From the NCBI RefSeq assembly GCF_988243305.1, contig NZ_OZ547136.1: DNA of 64,000 bases. The stretch is one strand, 5' to 3'. How positions within the stretch are numbered: position 1 is the first letter of the stretch; each line of letters begins with the position of its first letter. Under the pieces are notes generated by a model. That model had not been told where the DNA came from. It was given only the letters and a program-made list of their open reading frames with translations, and did no database searches. This document shows positions 8,923 to 38,499 of the stretch, piece by piece. Made by a program: the position numbers and the translations under genes.

Positions 8923-11900
8923 TTAAAGTGATTTACGGCAGGCGGTCAGTTGGGGGCTGGAATCAGCGTCGCTTCCAGTCATACCCGTTAGCATCTGCAC
9001 ATAGTAGTGCCGATTGTAATCATCAGATTCACTTGTCCAGTAAGCTCCTTGTGTAAATTGCGAATTACTGGAAAACGCTCCAACGTTCCCCCATTCACCA
9101 TACAGTGATCCCTGCGTGCGTTTGTTTTCGCCAGACGTCAAATGTGTGATGCCAGGAAGATTATATCCATCATTTTTAGCATGACAGAGCGCATTGGCAG
9201 CTAGCCAGATATTGGTATGATTTCCATTATTCACCCACCAGCCTTTCAGCTTAATTAAGGTCTGGTAGGTTGTACCTCCTTGTCGGGGAACAGCGCTTAT
9301 TGTGACTGACGTTTGATCGCCGATATTTGCGAAAGAAACCTTACCTGAAGCATCGACCGACACCCAACTCTGTGAACTTGAAAACATATAATCATCAACG
9401 GTTTTACCCGCTTCAAAGTTATCATTGTTGAGTGTGTAATACGCTCCTGCAAAACCTTCGCTCGGGAATTGAGCCGTGGAGAAGGTATGGTTGTTTGCAG
9501 TGACATGACCGGACATTTCTTTTATCGAGCGGATGAGATTCAGCGATACGCTTAAGTTTGCCTGATGAACCCCGTTCAGCATGGGAATGAGAGTCGCTGT
9601 TCCCTCTTTTCCGCCAGTGACAGTCACGGTGTACTCGCCATAATTTCTTTGGCTGTAATCAATATCGCTCAACTTGAGAAAGTTCACGAAGGGACCTGAC
9701 TGGACAAATTCCAGATGATCAGACGTCACTATCGGATTACCGTACTTGTCTTGCAATGTTAGCGTAAGTTTCGCGCTATGCTGGTAGTCAGCCATCAGAG
9801 TGCCAACGTCGGATTTCAATAATGACTTACTTTCATCCGCCGTGCTGGCAAGCAAGGTAATAGCTGCGGATTGGTTGGCTGTACCAGGAACTTGCACATT
9901 GACCGTTAAGGTTTCTGCCAATGTACTGGTTATTGTCGCCGTGACTTGCCCGGACTGATCGGTACGCGTAGTTGGAATATTAACTACCGGGCGACCTTTG
10001 GTGTCTAAGGCGTAACGAACATCGACACCTTCAACCGGGAATCCGTAATCATCTTCTACTCGTGACGTGACGGTGCTGCTATCGATGCCGTCGGCGGTTA
10101 TGGTGTCAGGAGAAGCCACGACGCTCACAACATGTGCCGTTTTAGCATCTGCCTTAACCGCAACCGTTACCTGGCTCTGAACGGGAACATCTTTGCCCAT
10201 TGTGGCCGTAACGGTATAGACATTCACTTTGTCACTGGTCAGCGTTACTTTGGCCTGACCATACTGGTCAGTAAGGACTTCCCCTGTATTGCTTAGCGTT
10301 GCACCTTCAGGCGTTACGCTAAAGGTGATAATTTGCCCAGGCATTAATTCATCCCGAGCATTTCTCACCGTTGCGGTCAGCGTAATACCTTCACTGTTAT
10401 GGACCGTGGTTTCTGGCTTCGATGATGTTAACTCGAGCTTGCCATTTGCCACATTCACGTCAACCTTACTACTACTGTTATTGTCCAGCGTTGCCGTCAC
10501 CTGATAAACCCCTGGCTGGGTGCTAATAAGGTTAACGTACGCGTAACCGTTATTATCGGTGTAAGCCGTATCGCCTATCGTAATGTGAGCTGTTGGCTGC
10601 GCACTTAATCTGACGCGTTGACCCGCTATTACATTGTTAAACGCGTCCTGGACGAGTATCCGTAGTGTGATGTTTTCGCCAACCGTTATCGTTTTTTCGG
10701 CTCCGGTTATACTTATTACCTTCGCCGAACTTTCATCCGGCAGCACTGATAAACTAAACGTTTTATTATCGGAGGGTTGCGCTTTCCGGCTCACCACGAC
10801 GTTATGTTGTCCGGCAATATTGCTGGTCATTGTTACCGTCGCCTGACCCAGCGTATTGGTGGTGACTTCTGTTCCACTTAGAGTGACATCGTTACTCTGG
10901 AAAGTGACCAGCTGGTCTTTAAGCGGATTTTGGTAAGCGTCCAGGATCGTTGCAGTCAGGGTACTCCCCGTACTGTTACCCGCAACAATGGTATTTAATG
11001 AGGCAGTCAGCGGCTGGAGCTGCGCGCTGTTTGTATCCCCAATAAAAGTGACTTGCTGATGAGCAACGGTATTATTTCTGGTCAGCGTCGCCGTAACTGT
11101 AAACTCACCCGCTTTTGTGCCACGCAATGTGACCACGGCATCGCCGTTTGCATCGGTGCGGGCGGTTTCACTACTTAGCGTGAAGTTCCCGGTCATAGAG
11201 GCTGGCAAGGTAAATTTCACATCCTCATCCGGCAACGGGTGTCCATAAACATCTTTCACACTGGCTGTCAGGATAACGGTATTTGTATTGTTAGCGATCG
11301 CACTGCCTGACCCGGCATTTAAGGTCATTACCGATTGTTCCCTGTTTGGGACCACGGTGATCGTGACCGACTGGTGAATATTTTTATCCGCCTCAAGCGA
11401 GGCATCGACGGAATAGCTACCAGCTTTTGAACTGGTCAGGTGCACTCGCACAATACCGGACTGGTCTGTTGTGGCGGACGTGTTGTCCAGTTGCGAGCCA
11501 CCAGGTGCCACAAAATTCACTTTCATATCTTTTAACGGGTTGTTATGAAAGTCTGTGACGGTGGCGGTCAGAGTACTGCCCTGGCTGTTGCCAGCAATAA
11601 TGGTATCTGGATCGGCAACCAGTTGTTTGAATTTTGGCGTACTCGAATCGCTAACGAATTTCGCAATTATCCGTTGTGAGAAACCATTTGGCAGCGTGGC
11701 ACTAATCGTATTTTCTTCCGCAACCTGACTTACCATGTTGATTGTGGCAACACCATATGCATCCGTATTTTGCTGCGGCGGTTCGACAAATTCAGCGCTT
11801 CCTTTTTCATTCTTAAAGGTGACCTGATGATTTGTCAGGGGATTATCACTCTCATCAGTGACGTTGATAGTGAGGGTATTAAATGTCTTTTTATCGGCGT

Positions 11901-24521: not shown

Positions 24522-25479
24522 ATGACAAACTTCACAACCAGCACGCCGCATGACGCATTATTTAAATCCTTTCTCACGCACCCTGACACCGCGCGGGATT
24601 TTATGGAGATCCACTTACCCAAAGATTTACGTGAACTGTGCGATCTCGACAGCTTAAAACTGGAATCCGCAAGCTTCGTCGATGAAAAATTGCGGGCGCT
24701 ACACTCCGATATTCTGTGGTCGGTAAAGACCCGTGAAGGTGATGGTTATATTTACGTAGTGATTGAACATCAGAGCCGCGAGGATATCCATATGGCCTTT
24801 CGCCTGATGCGATATTCCATGGCGGTGATGCAGCGCCATATCGAGCATGATAAACGCCGGCCGCTACCGCTGGTCATCCCGATGCTGTTTTATCACGGTA
24901 GCCGTAGTCCTTATCCCTGGTCTTTGTGCTGGCTGGACGAATTTGCCGACCCGACTACTGCACGGAAGCTTTATACTGCAGCGTTCCCGCTGGTGGATGT
25001 CACTGTCGTGCCGGACGACGAGATTGTGCAGCACCGCAAAGTCGCCCTGTTGGAGTTGATCCAAAAGCATATTCGCCAGCGCGATCTAATGGGACTTACT
25101 TGATCAACTGGCAGTATTACTGGTTACAGGGTGCGCTAATGACAGCCAGATAACCGCGCTGTTAAATTACATTTTACTGACTGGCGATGAAGCGCGTTTT
25201 AAAGAGTTTATCAGCGAACTAACCAGTCGAATGCCACAACAAAGGGAGCGAATAATGACGATTGCAGAGCGAATTCATAATGATGGATGGCTGTTGGGAA
25301 GGGAGAGGGGGAGGAAAGAAGGGAAAGTAGAAGGGGAACGGAGCCTCCTCCGATTGTTGTTGCAGAATGGGGCCGATCCTGAATGGATACAACGATATAC
25401 CGGACTTTCGGCAGAGCAAATGCAGGCATTAGATCAGCCCTTGCCTGAAAGCAAGCGTGATCCATGGATCGAGTACTAA
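24522..25479 (+). pseudogene. rpnD: Rpn-family recombination-promoting nuclease, frameshifted (equivalent of yjiP/yjiQ)
   Basis: N-terminal part in frame 24522..25103 ([29 protein letters not shown]...), C-terminal part continues in another frame to 25479 (...[37 protein letters not shown]...[11 protein letters not shown]...); frame change localised to about 25084-25103. Confidence 0.75.
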
Positions 25480-27310: not shown

Positions 27311-27475
27311 ATGGAATTTCACGAAAACAAAGCCAAAACGCCGTTTATCAGACTTGTGCAACTCTGGCAGGCGGTGAGGCGTTGGCGGCGGCAAATGCAG
27401 GCCCGGCGGGTGTTACAGCAGATGAGTGATGAGCGGTTGAGGGATATTGGGTTACGCAGGGAGGATGTGGAGTGA
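27311..27475 (+). CDS. yjiS: DUF1127 small protein YjiS
   Basis: 54-aa ORF MEFHENKAKTPFIRLVQLWQAVRRWRRQMQARRVLQQMSDERLRDIGLRREDVE with a GAGGAGG Shine-Dalgarno 8 nt upstream; below the 60-aa cut-off of the ORF track, found by reading the sequence. Confidence 0.7.
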   Translation: MEFHENKAKTPFIRLVQLWQAVRRWRRQMQARRVLQQMSDERLRDIGLRREDVE

Positions 27476-27550
27476 TAGAGGATGTTGAGAATAAATCAGG
27501 ATATTAACTTTTTATATGTACCCAGGAAGAAACCAGGGTACATATAGATA

Positions 27551-28264
27551 TTAGTTGAATTTAATATCAGCAATCAATTTTTTGATATAATCTTCTGGTT
27601 TCATCTTTGTTTTTTCTTTTATTTGCTGATAAGTTTCTTTCTTAATGTTGATTTCAATTGTTTTATTTTTATTGATAATGCACGCAATTGGTAATAGTAG
27701 CAATAATGTAATAATTATAATTATAAGAATTATTTTTGAATTTCCATGTGAGTCCGATTCCTTCATTTTTTGGAATATTCTTCTCATGACTGGATTAACT
27801 GCTGAAGAAAACATAATCATAATGATAAAAACAGCCAAAAAATCTAATGTATATTTTGCGTAGTAACTTTCAGTATTCATCTCAAAAAACAGCAACCACG
27901 CCAGAGCACAAAACAATGTCATGCCAAAACATATAAATGAAATAATAAAGCCAATTTGTTGCGTTCTTTTATCTAGTTCAGAGAGAAATTTCTCACCAAC
28001 TCTTTGACCTTTATAAGGTGAAATAAGTGTGTGGGCGGCATTGAAAAATACATTTGTGCAAATCAAAACAAAGAATATATTGATTGGCATAAATCCTATA
28101 AGTGTATAAAAGAAGAAGTCTTGTTGAAGATAGTACGGTAATTGATTATCAACTTCCATTAACAATGTAAATATAAAACCGAAAGAAACATAAAAAAACA
28201 AACCTTCTTCACGTAATTTTTTAATGTATTTTTTGAATTTAAAATCTTTAATCATCTTCAGCAT
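27551..28264 (-). CDS. Uncharacterised AT-rich multi-pass membrane protein immediately downstream of hsdR
   Basis: 237-aa ORF with four to five hydrophobic segments; very AT-rich codon usage unlike the core genes; same strand as the hsdMSR operon, 64 nt after the hsdR stop. Confidence 0.6.
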   Translation of the reverse strand: MLKMIKDFKFKKYIKKLREEGLFFYVSFGFIFTLLMEVDNQLPYYLQQDFFFYTLIGFMPINIFFVLICTNVFFNAAHTLISPYKGQRVGEKFLSELDKRTQQIGFIISFICFGMTLFCALAWLLFFEMNTESYYAKYTLDFLAVFIIMIMFSSAVNPVMRRIFQKMKESDSHGNSKIILIIIIITLLLLLPIACIINKNKTIEINIKKETYQQIKEKTKMKPEDYIKKLIADIKFN

Positions 28265-28328
28265 AGCTATTCCTAATTGTAAACAATATGGCCGGGGTAG
28301 AAAGTGCGACCCCGGCTATCAACGTGTT

Positions 28329-31300
28329 TTATGTTGGCAAAGCAATTTTCCCCGTGAGCATATCAAACATCAGATAAGCAAAGCCCTTTGCCCGAACTGG
28401 ATCGGATAAATATTGCAACATAAATTCTTGCCGAGCGTCATTACTGTCCATTACAGCATTATCAACTGCCTGGAGGAAATCACCAAGAATCGCTTGTTCT
28501 GGCGGATTGTTTTTAATTTGTGTCATAACATTTTCATTTTCAGTTATTTTGTTATACACCGAAAAAGCATTGCTGATCATATCTTTCTCGGTCAAATGGT
28601 CGCTAATGAATAATTCATTCATCCGAGAAAGCACCTGCGATAAAAATTCCTCTTTTTTATCTTTCGCTTTTGCCGTACCAATATCATTACTTGCATCCAG
28701 CGTATAGTCAGGCGTTTCTTCCTGTAAACGTAAATCTTGCTCATGGATTTTCGATAAACGATAGTGACTCATCTCTACATTACTGAGATCAATTTCATCC
28801 TCTTCCAGACGTTGCTCATGCAGCAGCGGACGCAGATGACGGGCAAACAGGCTTAGCTTTTCCAGATCTTTGTCATCGTATTCGACGATCTGCGACATAA
28901 ATTCGTAAAAGCGAACAAAGCTGCCGAGATCTTTTTTGAATATTTCCAGACGATCTTTTTCCTGCTTACAGGCTTTAAAACTGTTTTCCGCATTAGTGAT
29001 TAACACCGTATCGCCCGTTTTTTTGGTGCGCTCGAACATCTCTTTGGCGGTCAGATAAGCGTCTATCGCCATCAGATAACGCTTTTTCCAGCGTTCTACC
29101 GCCGGTTTGCATATATTACTGATCGCTGCATTCGATTTATTTTTGATGAAGAATGCCTCGCAGAACTGCTCGACTTCATGCCACTGAAAGATCTGCGTGG
29201 CGCGCAGTTTTTCAAACAGATCGAAAACCTGCTGCGGATCGCTGACATCGGTCAGTTCCGCCGTCTGGAAATAGGGCTGGAACGCGCCGAGGATCTCGTC
29301 CGGATCGTTATAAAAATCGAGAACAAAAGTGCCTGATTCCGCTTTGCCCGGATAGGTGCGATTCAGGCGGGAGAGCGTCTGCACGCACTCGACGCCGCCG
29401 AGGGCTTTATCCACGTACATCGCGCACAGTTTCGGCTGGTCAAAACCGGTCTGGAATTTATTGGCGACCAACATGACCTGATAATCATCGCTGTCGAAGG
29501 CTTTGCGCATATCCCGCCCTTTCAGGCCGGGGTTCATGTTTATTTCAGTAAATTTCTGGTTTAACAATGCCAGGCTGTTATGGTCGCCTTCCTGGAATTC
29601 AACTTCCCCGGAAAACGCCACCATCGCGCTGATTTTCTGGTAATTGTTCTCGCTAATGTATTTATCAAACGCCAGCTTGTAGCGTACAGCGGCTTTGCGT
29701 GAACTGGTGACCACCATCGCTTTAGCCTGGCCGCCAAGCAGGTGCATCACATGTTTGCGGAAGTGCTCCACAATCACCTTCACCTTCTGCGAGATATTGT
29801 GGTCGTGCAGTGTCACCCACTGGTTGAGCTTAATCTTCGCCCGTTTGCTATCGACTTCGCGGTCTTTGTCTTCCAGCTTTTGCAGCAACTGATACGCCAC
29901 TTTGTAGTTGGTGTAGTTTTTCAGCACGTCGAGGATAAAGCCTTCTTCGATTGCCTGGCGCATGGAGTAGACGTGGAAGGCCTCAGGTTTATTGGTTTTT
30001 GACGCCGGTTCATCGGGACGTGGACGGCGACCAAAAAGTTCGAGGGTTTTGGATTTTGGCGTGGCGGTAAAGGCGTAGTAGTTCAGGTTACTGCTGCCTT
30101 TCCGGGCGGCAATGGTCGCATCCAGAATATCTTCTGACGACAGCACCACGTCATTATCCATTTCTTCGCTCATCAGCACTTCTTTAAGCTGACGGGCGGT
30201 GGAACCGCTCTGCGAGGAGTGCGCTTCGTCGGCAATCACCGCATATTTACGCTGCTTCAGGCTGACGCTGTTTTCGATTGCTTTCAGTACGAATGGGAAC
30301 GTCTGGATGGTGACAATAATGATCGGCTGCGAGTTTTCCAGCGCGCTGGCCAGCTTTTCCGATTTGGAGCCGTCGCCCTCTTTGTTATTGATGCGCCCGA
30401 CCACGCCGTCGGCGTGTTCGAACTGCCAGATGGTGTCCTGAAGCTGGTCGTCCAGCACCGTGCGGTCCGTCACCACGATAATGGAGTGGAACTGTTTTTC
30501 CCCGTTCACGTCGTACAGACGAGAAAGCTGGTGGGCGGTCCAGGCAATGGAGTTCGATTTACCGGAACCGGCGCTGTGCTGGATCAGGTATTTATGGCCG
30601 GTTCCTTCAATCGTCGCGGCCTCCAGCAGTTTGTTGACCACATCCCACTGATGATAACGCGGGAAAATCAGGCTCTCTTTCTTCGCTTTCAGCCCGTTCC
30701 ACTCCTCTTTTTCTTCAATATGCAAATGGACAAAACTGGCGAGGATTTTTAATAAGTTGTCCGGCAGCAGCACTTCATTCCACAGATAATCTGTGGCGTA
30801 GCGGTGGGTATCTTCGGGGATCTCGTTGCCTGCGCCGCCGTCTTTGGTGCCTTTGTTAAACGGCAGGAAGAAGGTGCTGTCACCCGCGAGTTTGGTGGTC
30901 ATAAAGACGTCATACTGGCTGACGGCAAAATGCACCAGCGCGCCGCGCTTAAAGGTCAGCAGCGGTTCCGGTTTATTGGTGGCGGGATCTTTCGGCAGGC
31001 GGGTCTTTTTGTACTGCGCAATGGCGTTCTGCACCGCCTGTTTGAATTCGGATTTCAGCTCCAGCGTGGCAATTGGCAGGCCGTTGATAAACAGCACCAG
31101 GTCGATGCGCCATTTTTTGGCTTTCACGCCCGTTTCTGCAAAGACGCTATTTGAGGCATACGGGCTGTAGACCAGTTCCGGCACGATACGGCAGATATTC
31201 TGCTGATAGCGCGCCAGCGTTTCCGGGTTGAGATTATGTTCCGGTTTAAACTGACACAGCGAAAAACGGGCATTGCGGATTTTCAGTCCGTGGCGAAGTA

Positions 31301-31592
31301 CGCCGAGCGTACCCCAGGTGCGCGACTGGATGTCGGTGGCGTTGCTGTCGGCTTTTTTTAACTGCGCAACCAGCGCGTCGAGGAAATGGCGCTCGGTGTC
31401 GTTGGGGTAAACGCGGGCGAATTTCTCCCACTCCTGTGGTTGGGTGATTTGTACAAAGAGCAGGGCGTCTTGTGCGTATAGCGCACGTTCACGATCGTAG
31501 CCGTCGCCTTTGCCGACAATCCAGCCTTTTGCTGCCATCTGCGCGATGATGTCGTTTTGTAGGTTGACCTCTTTTGCAATGTCGTTGCTCAT
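28329..31592 (-). CDS. hsdR: Type I restriction enzyme R subunit
   Basis: 1087-aa ORF; N-terminal PD-(D/E)xK-type nuclease region (IDLVLFINGLPIATLELK), SF2 helicase Walker A (HSAGSGKSNS) and DEAH box (IADEAHSS); start overlaps hsdS stop (ATGA). Confidence 0.88.
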   Translation of the reverse strand: MSNDIAKEVNLQNDIIAQMAAKGWIVGKGDGYDRERALYAQDALLFVQITQPQEWEKFARVYPNDTERHFLDALVAQLKKADSNATDIQSRTWGTLGVLRHGLKIRNARFSLCQFKPEHNLNPETLARYQQNICRIVPELVYSPYASNSVFAETGVKAKKWRIDLVLFINGLPIATLELKSEFKQAVQNAIAQYKKTRLPKDPATNKPEPLLTFKRGALVHFAVSQYDVFMTTKLAGDSTFFLPFNKGTKDGGAGNEIPEDTHRYATDYLWNEVLLPDNLLKILASFVHLHIEEKEEWNGLKAKKESLIFPRYHQWDVVNKLLEAATIEGTGHKYLIQHSAGSGKSNSIAWTAHQLSRLYDVNGEKQFHSIIVVTDRTVLDDQLQDTIWQFEHADGVVGRINNKEGDGSKSEKLASALENSQPIIIVTIQTFPFVLKAIENSVSLKQRKYAVIADEAHSSQSGSTARQLKEVLMSEEMDNDVVLSSEDILDATIAARKGSSNLNYYAFTATPKSKTLELFGRRPRPDEPASKTNKPEAFHVYSMRQAIEEGFILDVLKNYTNYKVAYQLLQKLEDKDREVDSKRAKIKLNQWVTLHDHNISQKVKVIVEHFRKHVMHLLGGQAKAMVVTSSRKAAVRYKLAFDKYISENNYQKISAMVAFSGEVEFQEGDHNSLALLNQKFTEINMNPGLKGRDMRKAFDSDDYQVMLVANKFQTGFDQPKLCAMYVDKALGGVECVQTLSRLNRTYPGKAESGTFVLDFYNDPDEILGAFQPYFQTAELTDVSDPQQVFDLFEKLRATQIFQWHEVEQFCEAFFIKNKSNAAISNICKPAVERWKKRYLMAIDAYLTAKEMFERTKKTGDTVLITNAENSFKACKQEKDRLEIFKKDLGSFVRFYEFMSQIVEYDDKDLEKLSLFARHLRPLLHEQRLEEDEIDLSNVEMSHYRLSKIHEQDLRLQEETPDYTLDASNDIGTAKAKDKKEEFLSQVLSRMNELFISDHLTEKDMISNAFSVYNKITENENVMTQIKNNPPEQAILGDFLQAVDNAVMDSNDARQEFMLQYLSDPVRAKGFAYLMFDMLTGKIALPT

Positions 31593-32992
31593 GCGCTGGC
31601 CTCCGTGGGTGTTTCTGCTTTGGGGATGGGGGCGGTCCAGTTGCGTAGGTCGATTTTTCCGGTGACGGCAGCGGAGATAAGGGCGGTGCGGCGTTCCTGG
31701 ATTAGCATTATTGCTTGATTGGTTTTAAATATTATGAGATCAATTTGTGCGCATTTTTCATTCAAGGCGTTGACGATTGATTGTGCTTCACCCAATGGGG
31801 GAAATATAAACTTGGTTGTTTTAAAGTCACCTAATGAAACTCTTTTTCTTGTTCCCTCAATACTAATGTTATTAATGGTTTGTCGCCCAAAATTTGAGTT
31901 CAATAGATATGCTATGAAATGTGCATTGAAGGTTTTTTTATTAACTCTTACTCTCATAACATCTTGCGTTATGACAGCATCTGGTTCATTTTTAGGATAA
32001 ACGCACGCTTCTCCTGGGGGATCTCCGACTTTTGAAAAAATCACATCATTTGAGGATAATTTACATATTTCAAGCTGTTGGGCTTTTTGATGAGTAACAT
32101 ATACAGTACTTTTTCTGTTATAACCTGTCGCTTTTATATCTCGAATGTATACGACAGGTACCCCTTCTTCTTTCAATTCACTTGCTAGTAAATCACTTCC
32201 AAATGGCCCATTTACGAAGCATCCTTTAGTTTCATCACCAGTATTGGCTAATTTACTCTTAAACCAGTGGGAGGGTGCTTCGCCTAATCCTGTTAAACCA
32301 GAATCTTTCATCGGCACATCAGGATTTAGCCCTTTGGTCACCGCATGGCTAATCACTGCCTGACGTTTTTCTTTAAGTAGTTCAATGAGTTGTTGTTGTT
32401 TCTCGATCAGGTCATCGATTTTTGCTGTTTCATGATCAAGGAAAAGTGCAATCTTAGAAGATTCATCATTACGAGGTTTTGGGCATTGTATATCGCCTAA
32501 AAGTTCAAGGTTTAAACCGTCTCGTAAATCACCGCCAGCCATGTTACGTATATTCTGATAATTAGAAATGAGCCACCAAAATATATAGCGAGATTGATTC
32601 TTTTTATACAATACAATGGCCGCCATGGATTGGTTACAAGTGGTATTAATACCAAGTTGTGCAACCATACCTTTGGTTTTTCCCTGCCCAGCTAAAGCGA
32701 CAACAAGTGCCCCTTTTGGTATCCACTTGGCACTACTATTTTCAAGTGCAGCGTTAGATATATATGTGGATGGCTCGACTATATAACCTTGATTTACTGC
32801 TCCAGAACTAATCCAGGGAACTGTACCATTCTCCCAATAATCAATAACATTTTTGGAGGGAGTTCCTCCTGCAAAAATATTGGATAGCCACCTCAGCTTA
32901 GTTTTTTTCCAGTTTAGTGGTAATTCATTACACCACTCCATCCCAGAATCCCTATACTCCGGATACGCCTGATATTTATTTAACCCCGCCAT
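31589..32992 (-). CDS. hsdS: Type I restriction-modification specificity subunit (two target-recognition domains)
   Basis: 467-aa ORF between hsdM and hsdR with overlapping stop/start codons on both sides; two-TRD architecture with central and C-terminal conserved helices, as expected for HsdS. Confidence 0.8.
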   Translation of the reverse strand: MAGLNKYQAYPEYRDSGMEWCNELPLNWKKTKLRWLSNIFAGGTPSKNVIDYWENGTVPWISSGAVNQGYIVEPSTYISNAALENSSAKWIPKGALVVALAGQGKTKGMVAQLGINTTCNQSMAAIVLYKKNQSRYIFWWLISNYQNIRNMAGGDLRDGLNLELLGDIQCPKPRNDESSKIALFLDHETAKIDDLIEKQQQLIELLKEKRQAVISHAVTKGLNPDVPMKDSGLTGLGEAPSHWFKSKLANTGDETKGCFVNGPFGSDLLASELKEEGVPVVYIRDIKATGYNRKSTVYVTHQKAQQLEICKLSSNDVIFSKVGDPPGEACVYPKNEPDAVITQDVMRVRVNKKTFNAHFIAYLLNSNFGRQTINNISIEGTRKRVSLGDFKTTKFIFPPLGEAQSIVNALNEKCAQIDLIIFKTNQAIMLIQERRTALISAAVTGKIDLRNWTAPIPKAETPTEASA

Positions 32993-35337
32993 CAGGAATG
33001 TACCTCCTGCAACAGTTTCATAATCTCAGCGCTTACCGCATCCAAATCAGCATCAATCTCCTCCAACGGTCGCGGCGGTGTATAAACATAAAAATGACGA
33101 TTAAACGGAATTTCATACCCCACAATCCCGATATCCCCATCTTTCGCATCGCGTTTATCGGCATTGATCCACGCATCCGCAACATGCGGCAATACTTCCG
33201 CTTTGAAGTAATCCTCGATCAACTCGTTGGTAGATACCGCCGGATTTAACGGCACATTCTCGTTATCACGCAGGTCGCCATCCGATTCAAACTCCACAAC
33301 CTTTCCGTGGTACTCAAACGCGCCGTACAGCGGTTGGGGCGCTTCTTTCAGAACCTTGCTGATTACCGGCTCGGCGTCCGGGTTTTTGCGGGTGATAGCA
33401 TCGATAAACTGCTTGTTCTCTTTCGCATCCAGCTTCACGCCTGCGGTTCTGAGCGCCTCTTTCAGCGTCAACTGGAACTGATTAAAGTCATTGCTAACAG
33501 TCTCTTTGCCACCCGCCAGCATCCTCATCGCTGCCTGAATACGCCGCGCTTTTTCCATTAACCCGCGCTGGGCCAGCCATAATTTGCTGTCGAGCAGATC
33601 TTTAATTTGCTTCTCTTTCAGCTCGCTAAAATCGGCTTTAAGAATGGCGCGGGCTTCACTTTCTACCGCTGTTAAGTCGCCGTAATTACCGTCCTGCCAC
33701 TGGAAAGCAAAGGCGTCATACAGTTGCGCCATCGGCGCGTTAAACGGCTTCGGCGCAAAGCGCAATGTGGCAATGGCGTCATCACTTATCTGAGCCGACA
33801 GGCGTAACGGGCGCTCAACGGTGATGCGACGATAGCCAAACTCGGTGCTGTGAAAGACTTTGCTGGCAAAGGTTTTTGCCGCCTCGGTTTTGGTTGTTGC
33901 GGGCTGGCGTCCCCGGCTGGATTTTTGTTCGGGTGCTTTCTCCAGGCCTAACGCCGCAAGCGTAGTGGTGGCAACGGGTTCGAAATCGCCAAACGTGCGG
34001 GTGATTAAACCAATATCCTCCTCCCCGAGAATATTACGTTTTGATCCCAGCGATTTACGCATCTTTCCGCACAGGTTGCTGCCGTCGATTAGCTGGACTT
34101 TACCTTTGCGTTCTGGCGCTTTTTTGTTAGACAGCACCCAAACATAGGTAGCGATACCGGTGTTGTAAAACATATCGGTGGGCAGGGCGATAATGCCTTC
34201 CAGCAAATCCGCTTCCAGAATGTAGCGGCGGATCTCGCTTTCACCGCTGCCTGCGCCGCCGGTGAATAACGGCGAACCATTAAGAATGATGCCGATCCGT
34301 CCGCCACCGCTTTTGGCATCGCGCATTTTGCTGATCAGATGCAGCAGAAACAGCAACGAACCGTCGGAGACTCGGGGCAGGCCGGGGCCAAAGCGACCAT
34401 CAGCACCTTTGAGTTTGTGCTCGTTGTTGATGTCGGTTTCTATCTTTTTCCAGTCCACGCCGAAAGGTGGATTAGAGAGCATGTAATCGAATTTTTCTGC
34501 GGGGAGCTGATCGTTGGAAAGGGTGTTGCCGAGTTTGATAAGGCTGACATCCTGGCCCTTAATCAGCATGTCGGCTTTGCAGATGGCGTAGGATTCCGGG
34601 TTTAACTCCTGACCAAACGCGCGCATCACGGCATTGGGGTTTTGTTTGTGGACGTACTCCATGCCGGAGGAGAGAAAGCCGCCGGTTCCCGCCGTTGGGT
34701 CGTAAATGGTGCGAATGATACCGTCTTTATTGAGTGCATCATCATCATCGAAAAACACCAGCGAGGTGGTCAGATTGACGATATCACGCGGGGTAAAGTG
34801 CTCCCCGGCGGTTTCGTTAGAACTCTCGGCAAAACGTCGGATCAGCTCCTCAAATACCAGCCCCATATCGTGGTTGGTGACGTGCTCCGGGTATAAATCT
34901 GCTTTAGCGAATATTTGCACCACTTTGAACAGTAAGTTTGCATCCGCCAGCTGTCCGACAAACTCGCTGAACTTGAAGTGTTCGAAAATTTCGCGGGCAT
35001 CCGAAGAGAACGACTGGATGTAGTTTTCCAGGTTGTCCTGTATGCCATTTTGCCCCATTTTGCTGAGATCCATCGCTGAGGCATTGAAGAACGTGAGGCC
35101 ATTAGTCGCCCGCAGGATCATTTTCTCCTGGGCTTCCTCCGGCAGTTTCATGGCTTTTACTTTTTGCGCCTCGGTAATGACCGCGTCTTTCGTTGTTTCG
35201 AGTACGCATTCCAGACGACGCAAAAGGGTAAAAGGAAGAATAATTCGTCCATATTGTGATTGTTTAAAATCGCCGCGTAACAGGTCGGCGACAGACCACA
35301 GGAAGGCTGCAATCTGGCTGAAATTAGTTGATGACAT
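32992..35337 (-). CDS. hsdM: Type I restriction-modification N6-adenine DNA methyltransferase subunit (long form)
   Basis: About 781 aa from the ATG at 35337 (AGGA 9-12 nt upstream; an in-frame ATG also exists at 35346); SAM-binding ([10 protein letters not shown]) and catalytic NPPF motifs; long C-terminal extension. Confidence 0.88.
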
Positions 35338-35621
35338 AAAAAGCATTCCTTGCCCTGAAAAAGAGGGGGATATTCAATGTGAAGTGAATGCTTTGTTATA
35401 TCAAACTATTGCTGTGATGATCAAAAACACGATCATTTTCAATACGTTATAAATATGAATTGGAAATATTAATTGTTCTAATGAATGCGTGTTGAGGTGT
35501 TTCTTAATATATTTTGATTTATCCTGGAATGGTATTTTTGCAGAAACAAAGACGCTAACTTTTATTTTTTATTCGCAGCATAATGACGCCGTTTGCCAGT
35601 GCAATTTGACAGGAGTCATTC

Positions 35622-37721
35622 ATGAAAGCCACCGAAGCCCGATTACTCGATTTTCTAAAACGCTCTCAGCAATTCGTTATTCCCATTTATCAGCGTACTT
35701 ATTCATGGTCAGAGGAACAGTGCCGCCAGCTCTGGGACGATGTAATACGTGCCGGGCAGCGTGATGATATCCCGGCGCATTTTATCGGCTCGGTGGTGTA
35801 TATCGAACAGGGCCTATATCAGGTTTCGGGGATCTCTCCCTTACTGGTGATTGACGGTCAGCAACGCCTGACAACGGCGATGTTATTGCTGGAAGCGTTG
35901 TCCAGACACCTTGGCGATGACGAGGTGATGGATGGTTTCTCCGCCATGAAATTACGAAACTATTATCTGCTCAATCCGTATGAATCGGGCGAGCGTGGAT
36001 TTAAGTTACTGCTTACGCAAACGGACAGAGAGAGCCTGCTGGCATTGATTAGACAAAAACCGCTGGCAGAAAATTGCTCTCTACGCGTGAAAGAGAATTT
36101 TGAGTTTTTCCATGAGCAAATAGGCAAACTCCACGGCAATTTCACCGCGTTATGTCAGGGCCTTTCCAAACTGCTGATTGTGGATGTCGCCTTGAATCGC
36201 GGTCAGGATAATCCGCAACTAATCTTTGAAAGCATGAACTCAACAGGAAAAGCGCTGAGTCAGGCGGATCTAGTACGCAACTATGTTCTGATGGGGCTGG
36301 AGCCAGAACATCAAAGCCAACTGTACGACGATTACTGGCGGCCCATGGAGCTGGCGTTTGGTCAGAAGGGATACACTGACTATTTCGACAGTTTTATGCG
36401 TAATTACCTGACGGTAAAAACAGGTGAGATTCCGCGAATTGGTGATGTCTATGAAGCCTTTAAACGCTATGCGCGAAAACCTGGCGTAATAGATAGCGGG
36501 ATGGAGGCGCTGGTTGCGGATATTCGTACCTATGCGGATTATTTTTGTGCGATGGCGCTGGATAGCGAAAAAGACAAAATATTAAAGATGGCGTTTCAGG
36601 ATCTACGTGAGCTGAAAGTCGATGCCGCCTGGCCGTTCCTGTTGGTGCTTTATCACGACTATAAACAGGGAATTCTTTCTGCCGCGGATTTTTTAAGTGC
36701 CACGCGTTTAATTGAGTCGTATATCTTCCGGCGCGCAGTCTGTGCCATTCCCACTAACTCATTTACTAAAACCTTCGCCACGTTTTACAAAGTGCTGGAT
36801 AAAGAGCGTTATCTGGAGAGCATTGCGGCACATTTGCTGGAACTGCCTTCCTACCGTCGTTTCCCGGATGATGATGAATTTCAACGTGAACTGAAAACTC
36901 GCGACCTCTACAACTTCCGTAATCGCAGCTATTGGCTACGTAGATTTGAAAACCACGATCGTAAAGAACGGGCCTATGTTGACACTTATACGATTGAACA
37001 TATCATGCCGCAGAACCCTAATTTATCGGCGAAGTGGCGCGATGACCTTGGTCCGGAATGGAAGCGAATCCATAAAAAGTGGCTCCATACGTTGGGTAAT
37101 TTAACGTTAACTGGCTATAACTCAAGCTACAGCGACCGTCCATTTGCGAAGAAGCGAGATATAAAAGGTGGCTTTAAGGAAAGTCCATTACGCCTGAACA
37201 CGGGGTTAGGGCAATGTGAAATATGGGATCGTGCAGCGATACAAAAGAGAGCGGAACGTCTGTCCGAGCTGGCAATAGACGTCTGGGCGATCCCCAAACT
37301 TTCGGAAGACGTGTTGGCTCGTTATCGCACCGTCGTTGAACGAGGAACGGGATATGTCCTTGCTGATTTCCCGCAACTTGAAGAAGGTACGCACATCCGC
37401 GTACTTTTTGACAGCCTTTCTGATGCCGTTATGACGCTGGACGCTGGGGTTACGCGAGAAATATTGAAGCTCTATGTTGCCTTCAAAGCGGAGACGAATT
37501 TTGTTGATGTGGTGCCGCAAAAAAGTCGCTTACGTTTATCACTAAATATGCCATTCCATGAACTGGTTGACCCAAAATGTATGGCTAAAGATGTCACAGA
37601 TATAGGCCGTTGGGGCAATGGCGATGTTGAAATAGGTTTCAGCGATCTTTCTGAGCTTCCTTATGTGATGGGATTAATTCGTCAGGCATTTGAAAAGCAG
37701 ATGGATAACGCGATGGTTTAA
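35622..37721 (+). CDS. GmrSD-like DUF262/DUF1524 protein (putative modification-dependent Type IV restriction endonuclease, BrxU/SspE-like)
   Basis: 699-aa ORF; N-terminal DUF262/ParB-like NTPase motifs (IPIYQRTYSW...VIDGQQRLTT); central His-Me/HNH-like DUF1524 region (YTIEHIMPQNPN...W...HTLGNLTL); AGGAG Shine-Dalgarno; divergent from hsdM. Confidence 0.8.
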   Translation: MKATEARLLDFLKRSQQFVIPIYQRTYSWSEEQCRQLWDDVIRAGQRDDIPAHFIGSVVYIEQGLYQVSGISPLLVIDGQQRLTTAMLLLEALSRHLGDDEVMDGFSAMKLRNYYLLNPYESGERGFKLLLTQTDRESLLALIRQKPLAENCSLRVKENFEFFHEQIGKLHGNFTALCQGLSKLLIVDVALNRGQDNPQLIFESMNSTGKALSQADLVRNYVLMGLEPEHQSQLYDDYWRPMELAFGQKGYTDYFDSFMRNYLTVKTGEIPRIGDVYEAFKRYARKPGVIDSGMEALVADIRTYADYFCAMALDSEKDKILKMAFQDLRELKVDAAWPFLLVLYHDYKQGILSAADFLSATRLIESYIFRRAVCAIPTNSFTKTFATFYKVLDKERYLESIAAHLLELPSYRRFPDDDEFQRELKTRDLYNFRNRSYWLRRFENHDRKERAYVDTYTIEHIMPQNPNLSAKWRDDLGPEWKRIHKKWLHTLGNLTLTGYNSSYSDRPFAKKRDIKGGFKESPLRLNTGLGQCEIWDRAAIQKRAERLSELAIDVWAIPKLSEDVLARYRTVVERGTGYVLADFPQLEEGTHIRVLFDSLSDAVMTLDAGVTREILKLYVAFKAETNFVDVVPQKSRLRLSLNMPFHELVDPKCMAKDVTDIGRWGNGDVEIGFSDLSELPYVMGLIRQAFEKQMDNAMV

Positions 37722-37764: not shown

Positions 37765-38499
37765 ATGACAACCAAACTACTGGACCTGAGCTGGAATGCA
37801 AATGCCATCCCGGCGATGCAAATTGTCGGTACGCGCGCGGCCTTGTTTACCTTCAAAACGCATATGGCAGGGTTTGTCTGGGATGCCGCGCAACTGGAAA
37901 ATAACCCCTATACCTTTGTTGAAGTTAAAACGCTGCTCGATGGCGTCACCGTTGGCGGGCATAAGGTCAGTGATACTGAGCAGGTGTTGAACCTGGCAGA
38001 TAGCGCAAAAAAACTGATTGAACTTGTGCAATCCGGGCGTTTCGATCTTGATAAGAAAACGTTCACGTTGCTTAACGGCATTATTGCGCGTAATGAGGCG
38101 CTGGAGTGGGGCGTTTTTCGCGGCGAAGGTGATGAGTTACATTACAATGCGCGCGTTCACCTCGGCGAGTTGGGCACCCATTTCCCACCAGCCACAGAAG
38201 CAGGTGCACCTGAACTGAATCGAATATTCGCCGCAGGTGTGGCACAAATAAAAGAGATGCCACCGTTCGAAGGGGCGCTGGCAATGTTTTTATTTGGTGC
38301 TTATTTTCAGTTTTTCTTTGATGGCAACAAGCGTACCAGTCGCCATATGATGAACGGCTGGTTAATGCGCCACGGTTACAATCCCATTAGTGTACCCGCA
38401 GCTCGTGCGCTGGAGTTCAACAGCAAAATGGTGCGCTTTTATCACAGCAAAGATGCCAGTGAAATGATGGCATTTTTGGTGGATTGCTATCAGGTTTGA
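37765..38499 (+). CDS. Fic/Doc-like protein with non-canonical active-site motif (Q-x-F-x-DGNKR)
   Basis: 244-aa ORF; segment AMFLFGAYFQFFFDGNKRTSRHMMNGWLMRHGYNPISV matches the Fic/Doc core (HxFx(D/E)GN(G/K)RxxR ... LL.RHGY.P) except that His is replaced (Gln/Phe); starts 44 nt after the GmrSD-like gene with AAGGA Shine-Dalgarno. Confidence 0.6.
   Translation: MTTKLLDLSWNANAIPAMQIVGTRAALFTFKTHMAGFVWDAAQLENNPYTFVEVKTLLDGVTVGGHKVSDTEQVLNLADSAKKLIELVQSGRFDLDKKTFTLLNGIIARNEALEWGVFRGEGDELHYNARVHLGELGTHFPPATEAGAPELNRIFAAGVAQIKEMPPFEGALAMFLFGAYFQFFFDGNKRTSRHMMNGWLMRHGYNPISVPAARALEFNSKMVRFYHSKDASEMMAFLVDCYQV

Follow-up and report, generated by a model that had tools for sequence, protein, structure and literature searches.

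Among the defence islands of Escherichia coli and Salmonella, the Immigration Control Region (ICR) is the classic case and has been studied intensively. Non-hsd genes are known from Type I restriction-modification (R-M) loci: the EcoprrI hsd locus encodes the anticodon nuclease PrrC, and Type I loci of Campylobacter contain rlo genes. T4 Imm and lambda RexB are small membrane proteins of phage exclusion and abortive infection. In the ICR of Salmonella enterica, STM4522 is annotated as a 'putative inner membrane protein'; a full-text literature search for STM4522 returned nothing, and the papers examined on the ICR and the yjiS/hsdR region never mention the open reading frame (ORF) described here. 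A review of 9,040 ICR loci, which covers Type I, Type IV and toxin-antitoxin content, does not mention the ORF either (PMC12707154). According to this review, the island harbours Type IA, IB or ID systems, accompanied by Mrr, McrBC or GmrSD and by brnAT, symE and rpn modules (PMC12707154).

The window, i.e. the whole 64,000-nt stretch of DNA that was analysed, contains such an ICR as a variable defence island between yjiA and yjiN, and the ORF is located directly behind its hsdR gene. In common with PrrC and the rlo genes, the ORF is a non-hsd gene that adjoins hsd in the same orientation and in a defence context. However, searches of Pfam, NCBIfam and PADLOC revealed no homology to these genes, the ORF product is a membrane protein and not a soluble nuclease or ATPase, and, unlike this comparison set, the ORF is not bound to a single hsd family. 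The ORF product resembles T4 Imm and lambda RexB as a small polytopic inner-membrane protein which is accessory, fast-evolving and found in a defence context, but homology to any PADLOC or PHROG model is absent and the ORF was not found on phages or plasmids.

The closest described relative is STM4522, which shows full-length homology to the ORF with 37% identity over 230 aligned positions (tblastn E 4e-26, 93% coverage). Both share the length class, the helix pattern, a C-terminal tail motif and AT-richness (28.6% GC in STM4522), while the transmembrane body is highly diverged. Their position is alike as well, convergent with yjiS at the ICR edge and co-oriented with the Type I genes. In Salmonella, however, STM4522 follows symE after an hsdR-M-S operon annotated as EcoKI-like, whereas the ORF directly follows the hsdR of an hsdM-S-R operon and symE is absent. 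Judged by its sequence, the ORF product is a member of the STM4522-like enterobacterial inner-membrane proteins, a family without a Pfam entry.

The sequence is already present in databases as a hypothetical protein. Three points are new: the ORF can be connected to STM4522, its position follows a rule that holds across Type I families, and a frozen tail, which is predicted to be ribbon-helix-helix (RHH)-like, is combined with a fast-evolving body. Should the protein serve envelope defence or exclusion, or connect Type I systems to the membrane, it would be a new component of a textbook locus. Without such a role it would be one more conserved hypothetical membrane protein, a status above which the present evidence lifts it little. 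Carriers among complete E. coli genomes include strains SaT040 and Ecol_AZ159, which we take to belong to ST131 and hence to major clinical lineages; in Salmonella enterica the family is carried widely.

An AT-rich gene at the edge of the ICR

The ORF, annotated by RefSeq as 'hypothetical protein' (WP_270703182.1 / WP_000916450.1 in near-identical E. coli loci), lies 64 nt downstream of the hsdR stop codon on the same strand (Table 1). The neighbouring genes are, in order, yjiR, the convergent yjiS, the ORF, hsdR, hsdS, hsdM, a GmrSD-type Type IV enzyme, a Fic-family gene and yjiA-btsT; BrnA is listed additionally by the RefSeq annotation of near-identical E. coli loci. Coordinates, a GC content of 27.2% and five hydrophobic segments bear out the sequence-only reading, which had described a 237-aa multi-pass, AT-rich ORF co-oriented with hsdR. 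Its placement of the ORF inside a defence island is likewise confirmed, since the order yjiS-ORF-hsdR-hsdS-hsdM-GmrSD-Fic-BrnA-yjiA is that of an E. coli ICR.

Table 1. Positions in the window of the ORF, its parts and the genes and signals discussed in the text.
Feature	Position	Strand	Remarks
Inverse-autotransporter adhesin gene	8923..14163	minus	yjiJ side of the window
Pentapeptide-repeat protein gene	16722..18884	minus	yjiJ side of the window
Rpn-family gene	24522..25103	plus	193 aa
yjiS (DUF1127)	27311..27475	plus	convergent neighbour of the ORF; same adjacency in Salmonella (STM4521)
13-bp imperfect palindrome	27514..27545		between the convergent ORF and yjiS stops; region fold, -19.6 kcal/mol
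ORF (AT-rich inner-membrane protein gene)	27551..28264	minus	237 aa; ATG start, TAA stop
C-terminal tail, residues 198–237	27554..27673	minus	conserved and charged, NKNKTIEINIKKETYQQIKEKTKMKPEDYIKKLIADIKFN; predicted beta-alpha-alpha (RHH-like dimer module)
Membrane body, residues 1–197	27674..28264	minus	basic N-terminal helix and about five transmembrane helices, fast-evolving; from hydropathy, AF2 and allele comparison
Shine-Dalgarno-like AGGAA	28270..28274	minus	read from the sequence; AGGA core ends 6 nt before the ORF ATG
G+C-rich hairpin	28291..28316	minus	GCCGGGGT-N10-ACCCCGGC followed by CAUAUUGUUU; RNA fold of the 64-nt hsdR-ORF spacer, -20.6 kcal/mol
hsdR 3' end	28329..29000	minus	about 700 nt
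hsdR	28329..31592	minus	1087 aa, directly upstream of the ORF; TIGR00348 and PADLOC REase_I matches
hsdS	31589..32992	minus	467 aa; NCBIfam/PADLOC profile searches
hsdM	32992..35346	minus	784 aa; NCBIfam/PADLOC profile searches
GmrSD-type Type IV enzyme gene	35622..37721	plus	699 aa
Fic-family gene	37765..38499	plus	next after the GmrSD-type gene

The computed GC3 of the ORF is 27.3%, and its overall GC content compares with 50.1% in hsdR, 51.3% in hsdM, 40.1% in hsdS and 49.7% in the entire window. Isoleucine (33), phenylalanine (27), leucine (25) and lysine (25) are the most frequent residues and make up 110 of the 237 positions. At this base composition, the probability of 237 codons without a stop is 7e-10, and in 2000 shuffled sequences the longest ORF was 58 aa on average and never exceeded 134 aa. 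Selection was assessed by pairwise comparison of seven intact Escherichia alleles (from E. coli, E. fergusonii and another Escherichia). The ORF displays dN/dS values of 0.17–0.39 at a dS of 0.05–0.24, compared to 0.06–0.09 at a dS of 0.09–0.28 for the adjacent hsdR, i.e. its dN/dS is 3–5 times higher. The ORF is therefore under purifying selection, though more relaxed than hsdR, and, given the similar dS, is inherited with hsdR as a block. Based on the ORF statistics and on these dN/dS values it can be concluded that the ORF is a genuine protein-coding gene and not a chance open frame.

The non-synonymous differences among the Escherichia alleles fall almost entirely within residues 1–197, whereas the tail (residues 198–237) shows 0–1 non-synonymous versus 0–5 synonymous differences per pair. 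Two of nine inspected Escherichia alleles are frameshifted, both in E. coli (strains A20 and KE50), indicating that the ORF is dispensable. In A20 hsdS is broken too, whereas the annotation of KE50 shows an intact hsdR and, as far as it is visible, an intact hsdS. Between E. coli and Salmonella, identity amounts to 92% for yjiA, 90% for yjiN and 56% for yjiS, but only 37% for the membrane protein, so that, at the sequence level, its transmembrane body ranks among the fastest-diverging parts of the region. Moreover, the value for yjiS marks the convergent pair of yjiS and membrane gene as a local patch of fast divergence.

The hairpin in the hsdR-ORF spacer is terminator-like with a weak U tract. 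Two E. coli alleles (L014 and L016) retain it, but in E. fergusonii (L010) it has degraded. Hairpins are also found between symE and the membrane gene in Salmonella and Pseudocitrobacter, the one in Salmonella being followed by a U-rich stretch. A scan for consensus promoters and terminators detected none on the strand of the ORF and did not call the spacer hairpin. As read from the sequence, these hairpins suggest a partial insulation of the ORF from the upstream operon. The palindrome between the ORF and yjiS lacks a proper U tract on both strands and is conserved in E. fergusonii.

Homologues and their association with Type I systems

When 1.84 billion representative proteins were searched exhaustively by phmmer, 10 relatives of the ORF product were found (E 2e-38 to 2e-19 for P0010, P0011 and P0013), and two indexed searches of 5.8 billion proteins yielded 8 and 17. 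All named sequence relatives belong to the Enterobacterales (Escherichia, Salmonella, Pseudocitrobacter, Enterobacter and Pantoea). When the full-length model of the ORF product was compared to AFDB50 by Foldseek, significant matches were restricted to uncharacterised relatives, from Salmonella, Citrobacter farmeri, Serratia rubidaea and Pseudomonas prosekii. Length and helix pattern are retained by homologues down to 25% identity, and intact copies of 215–248 aa occur across genera at 25–40% identity. The exact protein of the window is recorded on 323 contigs, and the ORF is present in 114 of 5426 complete E. coli genomes (2%). A search of species-representative genomes located a homologue at only 2 loci, because the gene is accessory. 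Its Salmonella counterpart is widespread, as shown by sequence clusters of 772 and 1398 members and by 2626 index blocks.

Searches of Pfam, NCBIfam, PADLOC, PHROGs and PDB sequences gave no meaningful match, in agreement with the sequence-only reading, by which a family could not be assigned. The profile and structure-based searches that it had proposed thus led to no characterised family or fold but exclusively to uncharacterised relatives. In PADLOC-DB v2, 0 families matched the ORF at E<=0.01 and no Abi-family match was seen; PHROGs returned chance-level matches only, and a PDB sequence-profile search returned nothing. The Pfam matches to MscS_TM (i-Evalue 5e-4) and DUF898 (7e-4) were rejected as identities, as they cover hydrophobic helices only and lack fold support; the NCBIfam match to MAG0110 (3e-3) is far below the family cutoff. 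A Type I toxin or a holin was rejected in view of size and architecture (237 aa, five helices). A CPBP/Abi protease was discarded, since its motif is not seen among the invariant residues Tyr25, Lys85, Leu97, Gln103, Gly114, Cys119, Tyr135 and Pro192.

All members examined, from four genera, have a GC content of 26–34% and a GC3 of 23–35% in hosts of 52–57% GC and loci of 52–58% GC. Since every member is AT-rich at the same chromosomal position, the composition is an old family trait at this site and not a mark of recent import. The search of plasmids revealed no copy of the ORF, and the search of a phage collection no true phage copy, its single match being a Salmonella chromosome contig filed there. 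The foreign origin that the composition had suggested in the sequence-only reading is weakened accordingly.

In complete E. coli genomes the association with the Type I system is tight. The ORF and this hsdR allele (95–99% identity) are found in 114 genomes each, the yjiS-ORF-hsdR junction is contiguous in 114 genomes, and the ORF always adjoins this hsdR allele. An hsdR of 79% identity is present in 2 E. coli genomes, of which one was inspected (L003; strain GDSC2227PM, NZ_CP135595.1, 4676..14913). There, a pair of AAA ATPase and McrC-family genes (McrBC-like genes) comes after a full hsdMSR set in a tRNA-Ile-linked island, and the ORF is absent. Presence of this hsdMSR family is consequently not sufficient for presence of the ORF. 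In E. fergusonii and another Escherichia an ORF homologue is also found behind hsdR.

The gene order in Salmonella (Infantis) is mrr-hsdR-hsdM-hsdS-symE-STM4522-yjiS, a layout which is also observed at two further loci (L024 and L026) and in Pseudocitrobacter faecalis (L006). A third arrangement, mrr-hsdM-hsdS-hsdR-ORF with a 32-nt spacer, was detected in an enterobacterium (L011/L012). In four genera, the homologue closes a run of co-oriented genes that comprises a Type I system and in some cases symE, and in the R-M-linked cases it follows the upstream gene (hsdR or symE) at a distance of 32–73 nt, always in the same orientation. The HsdR proteins of these three ICR contexts are only 23–25% identical to each other. 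Furthermore, divergence of the membrane protein does not track that of the partner hsd genes: between Salmonella and Pseudocitrobacter, HsdR is 92% and SymE 75% identical while the membrane proteins share 35% identity, and the homologue next to the third hsd family reaches 46% identity with the Salmonella membrane protein.

The most distant members (23–29% identical) form an Enterobacter/Pantoea clade, in which the gene lies between an AI-2E transporter gene and mmuP-mmuM. The neighbours are ordinary metabolic and transport genes (AI-2E transporter, GFA, mmuP-mmuM), and R-M genes were absent near the clade members at the loci inspected. In S. enterica subsp. diarizonae CCUG 30040T (L015, 9520..10700), an ICR without hsd contains an AraC-type regulator and an RhtB-type exporter in place of the hsd genes; symE is intact, and the membrane gene behind it is broken by many stops and frameshifts. 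A seemingly hsd-less Salmonella locus with an intact gene (L025) was discarded, as the gap is a run of N.

With the exception of the Enterobacter/Pantoea clade, the position at the yjiS-side edge of the ICR behind hsd or symE is shared by the window, Salmonella, Pseudocitrobacter and L011. The ORF is thus a gene of this edge that follows Type I systems in general, independently of the Type I family. The independence is evident from the low identity of the HsdR proteins, from the mismatch between HsdR (92%) and the membrane protein (35%), from the 79%-identical copy without the ORF and from the distant clade without R-M genes. Attachment to this particular Type I family, as considered in the sequence-only reading, is not supported in view of the same 79%-identical hsdMSR copy and of homologues behind three unrelated families. 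The co-occurrence therefore holds within E. coli, but beyond this species the link to this hsd family breaks.

Protein architecture and candidate roles

Hydrophobic segments are located at approximately residues 21–37, 53–75, 104–127, 142–158 and 178–197, between a basic N-terminus and a charged tail of 40 residues. An AF2 model, calculated with a 10-row alignment (mean pLDDT 74.7), places helices at residues 2–38, 44–58, 60–80, 87–126, 134–169 and 174–196, matching the hydrophobic segments, and continues with an extended stretch (197–208) and two short helices (209–219 and 223–233). The distribution of lysine and arginine in 11 family members of all clades shows a basic N-terminal tail, basic loops 2–3 and 4–5, and an acidic loop 1–2. 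In the Enterobacter/Pantoea clade the K/R balance of 21 versus 8 favours an N-in topology with five transmembrane helices and the C-terminus outside; in the ICR clade the tail flank beside the fifth helix is lysine-rich and the balance is nearly even. Applied to five helices, the positive-inside rule predicts a cytoplasmic N-terminus and a periplasmic tail. A periplasmic tail, if true, would argue for a dimerisation module and not for a DNA-binding role.

The tail is the best-conserved part of the family, with a motif of roughly T-I-x-I-D-K-E-x-Y-x-x-I-x-E-K-T-x-M-K-P-E-x-Y-I. The family pattern T-x-I-x-I-D/K-K-E-x-Y-x-x-I...K-P-E-x-Y-I is present in the ORF product, and among 10–11 members Pro223 and Glu224 are invariant and Tyr226 is nearly so. 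Since the tail looks like a strand-helix-helix unit, two copies connected by a linker were modelled with an 11-row alignment. In both copies, the model contains a strand (3–11) and two helices (12–22 and 26–36) with a pLDDT of 85–91. Structure comparison listed TraY (6.1), AvtR (5.5), WYL1 (5.0) and a permuted single-chain Arc (4.9), followed by VirC2, ORF56, a CopG-family antitoxin and the omega repressor. The matches to TraY, AvtR and single-chain Arc, which carry two RHH units in one chain, align over 74–80 residues. Foldseek also ranked TraY and AvtR first, without significance. By sequence profile, RHH families were absent at E<=10 in Pfam, and the PDB profile search returned no RHH chain. 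From the model, the tail is predicted to form an RHH-type dimer. It differs from F-plasmid TraY, AvtR and single-chain Arc in lacking sequence-profile similarity to them, and in its fusion to a five-helix membrane domain that would position it in the periplasm. To our knowledge, no characterised protein combines a polytopic membrane domain with such a tail.

In the best overall explanation, put forward tentatively, at slightly less than an even chance, the ORF would encode a dimeric membrane protein that functions autonomously and resides in the ICR. The ORF product has a basic N-terminus, about five transmembrane helices and the conserved tail with its predicted beta-alpha-alpha fold, and the gene is an old inhabitant of the yjiS-side edge that has stayed AT-rich, whichever Type I system is present. 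That the protein is an autonomous module, neither part of the restriction enzyme nor obligatorily dependent on it, insulated in part from hsdR by the terminator-like hairpin and homodimeric via paired RHH-type tails, is somewhat more likely than not. Considerably more doubtful is a further step, according to which the N-terminus is inside and the tail periplasmic, and the diverging membrane body meets a changing envelope partner. A fast-diverging body facing such a partner would imply a role in exclusion, defence or toxicity at the level of the envelope, alongside restriction and not acting through it. The defence role as such would rest on association, namely on position, accessory distribution and fast divergence. 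Several observations count against this explanation: the nearly even K/R balance of the ICR clade makes the topology uncertain, the frameshifted E. coli alleles show the gene to be dispensable, co-orientation and the spacing of 32–73 nt make co-transcription or a functional link conceivable, and the decay of the gene in S. diarizonae, where hsd is lost, fits a dependence on hsd, albeit in a single case.

The last two observations would suit an accessory factor or abortive-infection effector that works together with the Type I system, as envisaged in the sequence-only reading. Such a protein would share a transcript with hsd and, upon failure or inhibition of restriction, would depolarise the membrane or make it permeable. 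It could account for the constant last position close behind hsdR or symE in four genera, for the exclusive pairing with one hsd allele in the 114 E. coli genomes, for the decayed copy in the sole hsd-less island seen and for a membrane body that diverges as fast as arms-race genes would. It is nevertheless improbable, given that the gene does not track the hsd family, has distant relatives without R-M genes nearby, matches no PADLOC or Abi family, is separated from hsdR or symE by a terminator-like hairpin and is frameshifted beside an intact hsdR in strain KE50; the linkage within E. coli may reflect simple co-inheritance, as dS is similar to that of hsdR. A resident without any defence role, i.e. 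an envelope or stress protein that flanks the variable region by chance and is mostly silenced owing to its AT-richness, would agree with the ordinary metabolic and transport genes around the Enterobacter/Pantoea relatives, with the very wide distribution in Salmonella and with the absence of a defence-model match. This is rather unlikely in view of the accessory status in E. coli, the low identity to the Salmonella counterpart compared to the flanking core genes yjiA and yjiN, and the recurrent position behind Type I systems. Frameshifts in A20 and KE50, the heavily degraded S. diarizonae copy and the dN/dS elevated over hsdR could alternatively mark a decaying remnant without present function. 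This is barely credible, since dN/dS is well below 1, the tail is nearly free of non-synonymous change while synonymous changes accumulate, intact copies persist in several genera, and an ORF of 237 codons would not last by chance at 27% GC.

The tail itself raises the alternative of a membrane-anchored RHH DNA-binding protein with a cytoplasmic tail, either a one-component regulator or a tether for DNA or restriction complexes at the inner membrane. The modelled resemblance to TraY, AvtR, Arc, CopG-type antitoxins and omega would be in line with this, as would the net charge of +5 of the E. coli tail, its lysine-rich flank after the fifth helix, and a strand that alternates polar and hydrophobic residues, which is a trait of RHH recognition strands. 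However, with five helices and a cytoplasmic N-terminus the tail would lie on the outside, its charge in Enterobacter/Pantoea and other clades is neutral to acidic, profile matches to RHH families are absent and the strand residues are not conserved between clades; this alternative is regarded as very unlikely. An extension of the favoured autonomous dimeric membrane protein would be that the STM4522 family is an unrecognised ICR module, a homodimeric inner-membrane protein with an RHH-type tail that engages DNA or phage on their arrival at the envelope. It might block or sense DNA entry, tether DNA or Type I complexes, or serve as a membrane effector once restriction is overcome. This would explain the retention behind Type I systems of any family or behind SymE, the arms-race evolution of the body and the frozen tail, yet it is regarded as a long shot.

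Other genes of the island and the window

The HsdM of the window exceeds by about 250 aa the HsdM proteins (529–539 aa) of the two further Type I families that were observed in ICRs. The Type I system is probably of Type ID, based on the frequencies of GmrSD (12%) and Type ID (12%) in Table 3 of PMC12707154. At its 3' end, hsdR has a GC content of 0.35–0.39 compared to 0.50–0.55 in the rest of the gene, and HsdR residues 1003–1082 match the PADLOC candidate PDC-S15 at 1e-6. The GmrSD-type enzyme carries a C-terminal extension matching PDC-S18 / DUF5655. In related E. coli loci, a BrnA antitoxin is annotated after the Fic-family gene; BrnT was not called.

An Rfam scan of the entire window returned no match. 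The product of the Rpn-family gene matches positions 1–191 of a 308-position RpnA-type profile and appears truncated relative to the 314–321-aa copies of other strains. On the yjiJ side, the window encodes a 1746-aa inverse-autotransporter adhesin, which is IatC-like, and a 720-aa pentapeptide-repeat protein, the gene of which is AT-rich with a GC content of 0.32–0.40.
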